A DNA stretch of 64,000 nucleotides from Dictyostelium discoideum (taxonomy: Eukaryota): positions 5,344,001 to 5,408,000 of the forward strand of contig CM000152.2 of NCBI GenBank assembly GCA_000004695.1. Direction: 5' to 3'. This document shows, one piece after another, positions 7,024 through 9,834 of this stretch. Both the position numbers and the translations under genes were made by a program. Each line of letters starts with the position of its first letter. Positions within the stretch are counted from its first letter, which is position 1. Under the pieces are notes generated by a model, which ran no database searches, was not told the DNA's origin, and worked only from the letters and a program-made list of their open reading frames with translations.

Positions 7024-7505
7024 ATGACCGAAATTTTATCAAAAGAAATTTTAAAAGATATTAATGAGTTTATTGAATTTCAAATTAAAGATAAATCAAT
7101 TCCATGTATATCAGTATCAGTGGTTGCAAGGGATGATAGTAGTAAAAAGAAAGAATGTCATAACCTTTTTAAAAAGATTTTTCATCATAAAGATATTAAA
7201 ACACCAATTCCAACATTAGATAAAACATTATTTAGAGTTGCATCAGTTTCAAAATTATTCACATATGTTGCAATACTTCAACTTGTTGATAAAGGTTTAC
7301 TATCACTTGAAGATCCAGTAACTAAATATATACCTGATTTTCATCCAAAAAATCCACAATCAACAACTTATTCAAATAAAAAAGAATTTGAACCTGATCT
7401 TTATAAGAAAATTACAGTTTTTAATTTAATTAGACATACATCTGGTAAAGTATAATAGTTATTAATTAAACTATATTAAAAATAATATATATTATATTTA
7501 TATTA

Positions 7506-7557
<52 letters not shown>

Positions 7558-9834
7558 TTAGGATTAATTAGAGAACCAATTGAAGGTAATTATTTTAATG
7601 AAATTCAAAGTGATTTAATTACATTAGTTAAAACAATGAATGAATCATCATTGGTTAGTGAACCATGGACAGAACATAAATATTCAAATGCAGCAGTCGC
7701 AATTGCAGGTTATATTGTTGAAGTTGTTAGTGGTGAAACATTTCCAGATTATGTTGAAAAGAATATTTTAAAACCATTGGGTATGTTAAATTCTACATTT
7801 AAGAATGAATATGCTTATACAGAAGTAAAAGATGAAAATCAATTAAGAACAGCCACTGGACATATGTGGAGATATTGGGATGAGACTACAACCGATTTAT
7901 CAGTTTATAAAGAAGCACCATTAACTTATTTTGGTATGTTTCCAGCCGCTGGTCTTGCAACAACTGTTGATGATATTTCCAAGTTTTTACAATTCTTTTT
8001 ACAAGATGGTAAACCATTATTAAAGTATGATACTTTTGTTCAATTCCTAACTCAACAACCATTAAAGGCACCAATAAAACCAGAGAATATAGATACTTTG
8101 GAATTCCCATACGTTTACAACGAAAGTGCAGTTGCCCAAACACCAACATCAACTGGTACCTCAAGTTATGGTCTTGGTGTTGAAATTACTAATTTCTTTG
8201 GATACCAAATCGCAAGACATGGTGGTGCTGTCAATGGTTTTGCAACTGATTTTCGCGTATTACCAGAATTGGGTTTAGGTATATTCACTTGTTCAACTTT
8301 GGATGTATGTAATGCAGTATCACAACAAATCTCTGAATATATCACATGTCAATTGGCTAGTAGTTTTGTAAAGGAAACTCATAGTTTGGTTTCATTAAAT
8401 AAAGTTTCACTAAATAAAACTTTAGAATCAATTGAAAATAGAAAACAATTTTTAAATTCAACTTTACTTGCAACTGAAATTCCAGATTCACTATATGATA
8501 ATATTTCAGGTTATTGGTATTTACCAACAAGTGAACAACAACAAGAAGAAGAAACATTCAATGATAATGACTATGTTCAAATTATGAAATCTTATAATGG
8601 TATGGTTTATAGTAAAGATGTTGTATTATCAAAGTTGGCATTATTACCAATTGATAAAAAGACAGGTGAACAATTAATCATTACAGCTGATAGAATGTCA
8701 TGTGGTCAAGTGATGTTAAAAATTCCAAAGGATTTCAATTTCAATGATAAAGAAGAAGCAAAAAAATTGAAATTAAAGGATAAATACACCCGTGATTCTG
8801 AAGAGGCTCAACATAGTTTAATCTATTGTAAATATAAACCATTACCATTGAAATCTGAAATTACAATTCAACCACCTTTAACAGAGGAATTTAAAGATTT
8901 GATTGGATTTTATTCAGCTCGTGATCATATGGCAATTATTTTTGAAGAGAACGGTCATTTAAATTTCAATATTGAATGGTTATTCAATTATAAAATGAAA
9001 TTTTTATCAGCAGTACAACAAGGTGATACCTCAATTGTTCACTTTTTACTCTCACCAACTGCAATGTATAATAATGAAATCATTTCATTCCATATGAAAA
9101 ATGGTGTACCACTATTCTTATCACTTAGTGGTATTAAATTTAAATTTCAATCAATGTCAACTCAACAACAACAACAACAACCAGGTGTTTATCCAAAAGA
9201 TATATGTTCAAAAGCATTAGCTGAATCATTTAATACTCCATTCCCATTTGAGGATGAAAATGCAAGAATCAATCATAATTTAGTAGATTTATCAAGCATA
9301 TCACCAACTCTTAAATTTGATATTAAATATGCAACCACTGATAACTTTACAGGTATTCAACTTTATAAACAAGCAAAAGCATTTTTAAATAAAGATGCTG
9401 CTAAATGTTTATTATCAGCTCATAATTGGTTAGTAGAGAATTGGAATGTTGGTATTATAGTTTTCGATTCCTATAGACCATGGAATATCACATGGACAAT
9501 GGCAGAATCGGTTATACCAGAATTTAGAGGTCTATATGTTGCACCACCAACCAAAGGTTCAGTTCATAATCGTGGTGGTGCACTTGATATCTCATTATAT
9601 GATTTATCAAATGGTAAAGTAATTGAAATGGTTGGTGATTTCGATGAATTTAGTATTCGTTCTCATCGTTCTTATTTTGGTGGTTCAGAACTTCAACGTT
9701 GGTATAGAAAACTTTTAACAATTGCATTAATCAATAATAATTTCAGACCAAATGAACACGAATGGTGGCATTTTGATATAATTGTTGATAAACCATTAGC
9801 AGTTTTAAATTTACAATTTGATCAAATTAATTAA
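7024..9834 (+). CDS. serine beta-lactamase / penicillin-binding-protein-like (class C / D-aminopeptidase fold) enzyme fused to a C-terminal VanX/DdpX-like D-alanyl-D-alanine dipeptidase (peptidase M15D) domain; exons 7024..7444 and 7562..9834
   Basis: Exon 1 has FRVASVSKLFTYVAILQLVDKGLLSLEDPV (the SxxK active-site motif) and ends in HTSG at a GTAAAG donor (7445). The intron contains (ATT)n, the acceptor AG is at 7560-7561, and exon 2 continues LIREPIEGN... in the frame of ORF 7636. Downstream are YSN (KYSNAAVAIAGY) and HGG (ARHGGAVNGFATDF) motifs. The C-terminus has DIKYATTDNFTG, SVHNRGGALDISLYD and EHEWWHFD, matching the VanX zinc-ligand and catalytic motifs. Confidence 0.85.

Follow-up and report, generated by a model that had tools for sequence, protein, structure and literature searches.

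The gene studied here lies at positions 7024 to 9834 on the forward (+) strand of a 64,000-nucleotide stretch of Dictyostelium discoideum DNA (contig CM000152.2, positions 5,344,001 to 5,408,000), which is called the window below. We found that it encodes a bacterial-type fusion enzyme of 897 amino acids (aa), in which an N-terminal serine-hydrolase domain of family S12 is joined through a middle region with two barrels to a C-terminal zinc dipeptidase domain of family M15D. There is hardly any doubt about the identity of the gene, its architecture and the origin of the whole fusion in bacteria. The S12 and M15D domains probably act together in the cytosol on stem-peptide fragments of peptidoglycan and release free D-alanine (D-Ala) from them. 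Public resources already hold an annotation of the gene and a precomputed domain pair; in the literature, we found no paper on the D. discoideum gene or its UniProt accession, and none on the bacterial fusion family.

Two open reading frames (ORFs), 7024-7455 and 7636-9834, occupy the locus on the + strand. The exons and the intron, as read directly from the DNA, are listed here with the encoded domains and the codons of their motif residues (nt, nucleotides).

7024..7444, + strand: exon 1, with an A-run before the ATG; encodes aa 1-140 and the first base of Gly141, with the SxxK motif inside
7445..7561, + strand: intron of 117 nt, GT (7445) to AG (7560-7561), phase 1, GC content 4%
7562..9834, + strand: exon 2, encoding aa 141-897, with the TAA stop at 9832-9834
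7096..8298, + strand: S12 domain (PF00144, serine beta-lactamase/DD-peptidase fold), aa 25-386, interrupted by the intron
S12 motif codons, + strand: Ser74 7243-7245, Lys77 7252-7254, Tyr181 7681-7683, Asn183 7687-7689
S12 motif codons, + strand: His360 8218-8220, Gly362 8224-8226
8299..9276, + strand: middle region, aa 387-712, a helical linker (aa about 391-455) and two beta-rich subdomains
8509-8820, + strand: beta-rich subdomain 1, aa about 457-560
8905-9150, + strand: beta-rich subdomain 2, aa about 589-670
9277..9783, + strand: M15D domain (PF01427, VanX-DdpX-type zinc dipeptidase), aa 713-881
M15D residue codons, + strand: Tyr730 9328-9330, Arg779 9475-9477, Ser807 9559-9561, His809 9565-9567
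M15D residue codons, + strand: Asp816 9586-9588, Asp835 9643-9645, Glu874 9760-9762, His877 9769-9771

The joined exons form a frame of 2694 nt, and the 897-aa product matched XP_002649152.1 (UniProt C7G020) with 100% identity from end to end, a protein annotated as 'beta-lactamase family protein [Dictyostelium discoideum AX4]'. The splice junction, RHTSG/LIREPIEGNYF (in its context, ...IRHTSG/LIREPIEGNYFN...), is collinear and gap-free with the bacterial consensus HRSGLxREPPVGNYFD. We consider the splice to be correct because RefSeq has the identical product, the junction aligns without a gap to the bacterial proteins and relatives keep the intron position. The window has a Dictyostelium-like composition of 22.8% GC with A/T-rich spacers. 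The coding sequence has 29% GC and 13% GC at third codon positions (GC3), and the bacterial homologues have 34-62% GC overall. The intron is made up nearly entirely of A and T, and an (ATT)n microsatellite of about 15 units was observed in it.

The N-terminal domain matched the Pfam model PF00144 (Beta-lactamase) at aa 25-386 with 1.4e-45 and 156.4 bits against a cut-off of 27, and it carries the motifs SVSK (aa 74-77), YSN (aa 181-183) and HGG (aa 360-362). In an alignment of 50 sequences (12 dictyostelid and 38 bacterial proteins), S74, K77, Y181, S182, N183, H360 and G362 were invariant. The variant of the HxG motif found here is the form present in SurE (PMC12903863). A full-length AlphaFold2 model built on the same alignment was confident throughout, with a predicted local distance difference test score (pLDDT) of 89.7 and a predicted template modelling score (pTM) of 0.89. 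Foldseek matched it in the PDB to IS11, Lip3, Pab87, LACTB, DAP, R61 and AmpC (E 1e-21 to 1e-15), and SurE and ClbP were other S12-type matches. The family profile found Pab87 as its best PDB match (1.7e-57), while in the single-sequence PDB search the esterase IS11 came first (6.8e-20), ahead of several carboxylesterases and transesterases. The best serine-hydrolase model of NCBIfam was methyl acetate hydrolase, below its cut-off. Acyl-enzyme catalysis on D-configured substrates would be the putative activity of the domain. Descent from eukaryotic LACTB was also considered and rejected, as the LACTB matches were weak and partial (9.7e-10, aa 54-219), whereas the full-length bacterial fusion proteins matched with E values from 1e-119 to 1e-94.

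The C-terminal domain matched PF01427 (Peptidase_M15) at aa 713-881 with 4.7e-24 and 85.7 bits against a cut-off of 27. Its motifs are DIKYATTDNFTG at aa 727, SVHNRGGALDISLYD at aa 807 and EHEWWHFD at aa 872. Alignment to VanX (1r44) paired R71 with R779, S114 with S807, H116 with H809, D123 with D816, D142 with D835, E181 with E874 and H184 with H877, and all the aligned VanX-type catalytic residues were invariant in the 50 sequences. In VanX, His116, Asp123 and His184 are the zinc ligands, Glu181 is the catalytic base, Arg71 acts on the transition state, and Tyr21, Ser114 and Asp142 are the dipeptide contacts. The domain is predicted to hydrolyze free D-Ala-D-Ala in a zinc-dependent manner.

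Between the two enzymes, both beta-rich subdomains of the middle region are lipocalin-like accessory barrels of the kind that accompanies Pab87, DAP and IS11. This region is longer in the dictyostelids (286-348 aa) than in bacteria (about 244 aa) and has dictyostelid-specific insertions; it also holds conserved positions common to the dictyostelid and bacterial proteins. A first-pass annotation of this DNA had proposed a single spliced gene with an S12-type N-terminal half, its SVSK, YSN and HGG motifs and a VanX/DdpX-type C-terminal half with its own motifs, and all of these assignments were confirmed by the RefSeq identity, the collinear junction, the intron common to relatives, the two Pfam matches, the motifs at their places and the VanX alignment. 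It had placed a linker at aa about 330-560, and these bounds did not hold, as the region between the Pfam domains spans aa about 387-712.

The whole fusion is common in bacteria. In a scan of one genome per bacterial species, the same collinear S12-barrel-M15D protein was found in at least 596 loci, and among the loci listed it occurred mostly in Gemmatimonadota, Acidobacteriota, Planctomycetota, Bacteroidota and Verrucomicrobiota. Homology search returned hundreds of bacterial proteins and clusters of about 770-830 aa with both Pfam domains. They aligned over 98-100% of the query length at 29-35% identity, many of them at 29-32%, and their sources include Zavarzinella formosa, Fimbriiglobus, 'Candidatus Acidoferrum' and Flavobacteriaceae. 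A JGI label for such a protein reads 'CubicO group peptidase (beta-lactamase class C family)/D-alanyl-D-alanine dipeptidase'. The protein of Zavarzinella formosa (P0036) may serve as an example of the family, as it has the same three modules in the same order and the same invariant residues at both sites. The dictyostelid proteins differ from the bacterial fusion by a middle region that is 40-100 aa longer, by the intron and by AT-rich codons.

Longer bacterial variants of about 1130-1350 aa were also observed (proteins P0013-P0015, P0018, P0058, P0059, P0064 and P0118; loci L035, L076, L082 and L085). In several of these proteins, the precomputed Pfam data gave an extra N-terminal PF13354 beta-lactamase-type or DUF3471 domain besides the core. 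On the metagenomic contig L004 (2786-8337), three PF00144 genes follow one another and the last of them is the fusion gene; a DUF3471 domain is present in one of the three. This array suggests local duplication and diversification of S12 hydrolases.

Orthologues were found in D. firmibasis, D. purpureum, Polysphondylium violaceum, Tieghemostelium, Acytostelium, Heterostelium and Cavenderia, with four further records. In neighbour-joining (NJ) trees, the 12 dictyostelid proteins were monophyletic with 100/100 bootstrap support, both at full length and in each of three regions, and the topology inside this clade agreed with the species tree. A profile made from the dictyostelid proteins only recovered the same 12 proteins at 1301 bits or more, and the next match, at 623 bits, was a bacterial-type protein with a signal peptide. 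Among the best 120 matches of this profile, every source-named relative after the 12 dictyostelid proteins was bacterial and no other eukaryote appeared; no DNA-level search covered other amoebozoan genomes. The 80 loci listed from a collection of bacterial and archaeal genomes all had bacterial titles. In D. purpureum, the intron (67 nt) interrupts the same codon in the same phase, as it also does in the only distantly related Cavenderia fasciculata (72 nt), and its position is kept in three of the four dictyostelids checked, the gene of Tieghemostelium lacteum being without an intron. The neighbours of the orthologues are ordinary eukaryotic genes and differ between species.

Since the three-module protein exists in bacteria, we conclude that the amoebae acquired the fusion as a single gene. 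This happened before the dictyostelids radiated, because the 12 orthologues form one clade and the intron position is common to three of the four species. After the transfer, the bacterial signal peptide would have been lost, an intron gained and the codon usage fully adapted to AT-rich codons. The first-pass annotation had supposed that any horizontal acquisition was ancient, which agreed with our results, as the intron position and phase are kept and orthologues occur in all dictyostelid groups. Its author did not know this fusion from bacteria, and this view had to be abandoned given the species genomes and protein clusters described above. The statement that neither domain is expected in a eukaryote was too strong, as it is reported that PF00144/LACTB-type proteins are widespread in eukaryotes, with several in Dictyostelium (PMC2266909). 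The separate domain phylogenies that it had put forward placed the dictyostelids in one clade for each region, and these NJ trees single out no donor.

Intron turnover within Dictyostelia was also observed (loci L088, 5001-7601, and L086, 5001-7735), as the T. lacteum gene is intronless and that of C. fasciculata has a second intron after aa 184. In P0006, a dictyostelid-like protein from EukProt, a Lys/Arg-rich tail, KKGRKRPKIKSPQEDQEKASTRLKK, replaces the conserved ...PVLNxxF end. Either an error in the gene model or an extension specific to this lineage may account for it.

Neither a signal peptide nor a transmembrane segment was found in the D. discoideum protein, and none of the 12 dictyostelid proteins has a hydrophobic N-terminus, a transmembrane segment or an SKL-like C-terminus. 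In all 12, the chain starts straight with helix one of the mature domain, whereas the bacterial fusion proteins carry an N-terminal signal peptide. The first-pass annotation had likewise seen no signal peptide in the D. discoideum protein. A cytosolic location would therefore be the simplest reading. An upstream exon encoding a signal peptide was considered and rejected, as the 355-nt spacer before the gene (11% GC) has no ORF and the 12 orthologues begin at the same helix.

In the cytosol, the S12 module with its barrels would act as a D-stereospecific DD-carboxypeptidase or D-aminopeptidase on stem-peptide fragments of digested peptidoglycan, and its substrates would be D-Ala-terminated or D-Ala-initiated peptide fragments. 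The barrels are of the type that shapes the substrate site in Pab87, DAP and IS11. The zinc module would split free D-Ala-D-Ala, so that the two sites together would release free D-Ala, which the D-amino-acid oxidase of D. discoideum could then turn into pyruvate. The role of the enzyme would be nutrient salvage and the removal of indigestible D-peptides. It is reported that D-Ala is the best substrate of this oxidase and that its expression peaks in the feeding stage, and the same authors noted that no other D-Ala-metabolising enzyme was known in D. discoideum (PMC5928759). PscA (DDB_G0271902) is a functional penicillin-sensitive S13 carboxypeptidase of D. discoideum and a listed candidate for horizontal gene transfer (HGT) (PMC3188802; PMC4604126). 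The fusion gene would fit between PscA and the oxidase. We favour a shared stream of peptidoglycan-derived D-Ala substrates for the two domains because the VanX-type pocket is invariant and the fusion is obligate in hundreds of genomes.

The gene neighbourhoods of the bacterial fusion were surveyed by targeted tblastn and by unbiased clustering of all flanking ORFs in 84 loci. On the long contig L002, a co-directional row begins with a MurR/RpiR regulator, an amino-acid permease, a GNAT acetyltransferase and an enzyme of the mandelate racemase / muconate lactonizing enzyme family (MR_MLE), and continues with the fusion gene, a PBP4(S13)-amidohydrolase fusion and a PF14031 enzyme. The MR_MLE enzyme of this row passes the model TIGR01928 for the N-acylamino-acid racemase / o-succinylbenzoate synthase type (NSAR/OSBS) with 332 bits against a cut-off of 200. 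The fusion gene of Zavarzinella has an MR_MLE gene directly beside it. The most frequent neighbours were counted as follows.

MR_MLE: 10 loci
Amino-acid permease: 10 loci
Amidohydro_3, D-aminoacylase-like: 6 loci, plus fused forms
MurR/RpiR regulator: 6 loci
Peptidase_S15: 5 loci
GNAT: 5 loci
TonB-dependent receptor: 4 loci
Peptidase_M55 D-aminopeptidase: 3 loci

Where this pattern exists, it is one of uptake and conversion of D-amino acids and D-containing peptides; the contexts of the other bacterial loci were uninformative. The breakdown of D-Ala peptides, which the first-pass annotation had suggested as the function, is plausible and would agree with these contexts. We also observed that the S13-amidohydrolase gene adjoining the fusion gene at L002 (8534-11806), and likewise at L067 (1804-5055), encodes a 1090-aa protein in which a PBP4-type S13 DD-carboxypeptidase is fused to a D-aminoacylase-like amidohydrolase.

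Several observations weigh against the bacterial inheritance of a D-Ala-releasing enzyme as described above. The dictyostelid branch is long and about equidistant from all bacterial phyla in the bootstrapped NJ trees, and no donor phylum is singled out. The NCBIfam model of DdpX gave 2.1e-32 and 112.3 bits, below its cut-off of 176, and that of VanX gave 68.9 bits, below its cut-off of 320. Because these scores stay under the equivalog cut-offs, we regard the M15D domain as a separate subfamily and not as VanX/DdpX proper, and membership in VanX, DdpX or DAP proper was rejected on the NCBIfam scores. The S12 family also holds esterases (IS11 and EstG), cyclases (SurE and Ulm16) and D-L peptidases (Lip3), and with this range the sequence by itself does not fix the substrate of the S12 domain. 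Informative gene contexts came from only about 10-15 of about 80 loci, mainly in Acidobacteriota and Gemmatimonadota. A cytosolic site needs peptidoglycan peptides that leave the phagolysosome, which is assumed here. The literature yielded no biochemical, expression or localisation data for the protein or its bacterial members.

A broader proposal is that the dictyostelids have a complete cytosolic route for D-Ala peptides assembled from imported bacterial parts, with the S13 enzyme PscA, the fusion enzyme and then D-amino-acid oxidase. We put this forward only tentatively and consider it doubtful. If it were true, stem-peptide fragments would have to leave the phagolysosome for the cytosol by an export that has not yet been described, and the bacterial S12-barrel-M15D family would represent a new bifunctional class of 'D-Ala harvesting' enzymes. 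The sites would then act in sequence, the DD-carboxypeptidase or D-aminopeptidase first and the DD-dipeptidase second. With the S13-amidohydrolase gene beside the fusion gene at L002 and L067, PscA and the fusion gene may share a cluster type, and it is conceivable that the two came from a common source cluster.

The esterase IS11 as the best single-sequence match and methyl acetate hydrolase as the top serine-hydrolase model would agree with a serine domain that is not a peptidase. In that case it would be a family VIII-type esterase or an acyl-transfer enzyme, with the two domains working on unrelated substrates, or one of the two domains would be non-catalytic in the amoeba and serve for binding only. 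We consider this unlikely, since the family profile ranks the D-specific peptidase Pab87 first, the catalytic residues of both domains are invariant in the 12 dictyostelid and 38 bacterial proteins, and the obligate fusion to a D-Ala-D-Ala dipeptidase points to a shared D-peptide stream. A role in defence was also weighed, in which the S12 domain would cleave non-ribosomal peptides or lipopeptides with D-amino acids that bacteria produce against amoebae, or other D-peptide toxins, and the M15D domain would clear D-D dipeptides. It is reported that S12 enzymes with accessory beta domains (Lip3/Lip7, BogQ and TriF) cut D-L bonds in amoeba-active lipopeptides (PMC12903863), and Lip3 (9sn1) was among our top structural and profile matches. 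However, the identity to Lip3 is only about 14%, and the cleft-forming C-terminal domain of Lip3 was described as unique to that enzyme (PMC12903863). The invariant VanX-type pocket points to free D-Ala-D-Ala, which is a cell-wall metabolite, and the genes beside the bacterial fusion serve catabolism and transport and not resistance, so that defence appears quite unlikely.

The absence of a signal peptide from every dictyostelid orthologue and the strict conservation since the dictyostelid ancestor would also suit an enzyme that dampens or tunes the response to cytosolic cell-wall fragments, in innate immunity or prey sensing, instead of one for bulk catabolism. We hold this to be very unlikely, as the Pfam scan gave no sensor or signalling domain, support was not found in the literature and the bacterial homologues stand in catabolic contexts. 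The chance of an artefact, either bacterial contamination or two genes joined by mistake, is practically negligible. The bacterial affinity of the sequence, and nothing else, speaks for it. It was rejected on the AT-rich spliceosomal intron and the low GC3, on the ordinary Dictyostelium genes at the flanks (a rhomboid gene and an Asn-rich ORF), on the same intron site in other dictyostelid genomes with different eukaryotic neighbourhoods, and on a junction frame collinear with the bacterial proteins in a model identical to the RefSeq protein.

The upstream neighbour in the window (5087-6668, + strand) encodes a rhomboid-family protease (PF01694, 8e-32) with a long N-terminal half of low complexity, in which a poly-Gln run, runs of Gly and an RGRGRG repeat occur. 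The ORF at 6480-6668, which encodes a hydrophobic segment, looks like an extra exon of this gene. Downstream, a convergent ORF of 1153 aa (9948-13409, - strand) has its stop codon 113 nt from that of the fusion gene; it gave no Pfam match and contains Asn- and Thr-rich tracts. The 1006-aa ORF at 842-3862 (+ strand) matches the C-terminal part of the ATG2 model (PF13329, 6e-17) and is probably one exon of an ATG2-like gene. No transfer RNA genes were found in the window.

Bacterial enzymes for cell-wall peptides that a bacterivorous eukaryote has captured form a small set, with PscA and published HGT genes among them, and this gene is a well-supported addition to it. A ready-made multi-domain bacterial enzyme has been kept whole, with both active sites conserved, throughout the dictyostelid radiation, and it is a concrete candidate for the step that has been missing in Dictyostelium before its D-Ala-preferring D-amino-acid oxidase. 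The gene also points to a very common enzyme family of soil bacteria linked to the scavenging of D-amino-acid peptides. HGT into Dictyostelium was known before, and so were both catalytic domains and the accessory barrels, so that the gene does not stand for a new kind of system.

Among the known systems, Pab87 of Pyrococcus abyssi (PDB 2qmi) has an S12 domain followed by a C-terminal lipocalin domain, as in the D. discoideum protein. Its peptidase activity is reported to be D-stereospecific, with removal of the C-terminal D-Ala from muropeptide pentapeptides and a preference for D-Ala-para-nitroanilide (pNA) over L-Ala-pNA, and its family has the CubicO-specific motifs YAExAF/L and a C-terminal ERY (PMC2651629). 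The identity between the two is about 19%. Pab87 lacks an M15 domain, has a single barrel and assembles into a cubic octamer by way of the CubicO-specific motifs, whereas the D. discoideum chain runs on into the M15 domain after the barrels. DAP of Ochrobactrum anthropi (1ei5) likewise has barrels after its S12 domain and is without an M15 domain, and the NCBIfam D-aminopeptidase model NF009622 gave the D. discoideum protein 42.7 bits against a cut-off of 443. VanX of E. faecium (1r44) and DdpX of E. coli belong to the same PF01427 family, and the zinc ligands, the Glu, the Arg and the equivalents of Tyr21, Ser114 and Asp142 are kept. These are stand-alone proteins of about 200 aa, whereas the D. 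discoideum domain is the C-terminal module of an 897-aa protein whose gene has no van or ddp operon context. By the features compared, the protein is a well-supported member of PF00144/S12 and PF01427/M15D and is not an equivalog of VanX, DdpX or DAP. PscA, like the fusion enzyme, is of bacterial type, is directed at the D-Ala-D-Ala ends of cell-wall peptides and is conserved in D. purpureum (PMC3188802; PMC4604126). It belongs to family S13 and not to S12 and M15D, and PscA is in the published 2011 table of 16 Dictyostelium HGT candidates, whereas the fusion gene is not (PMC3188802).

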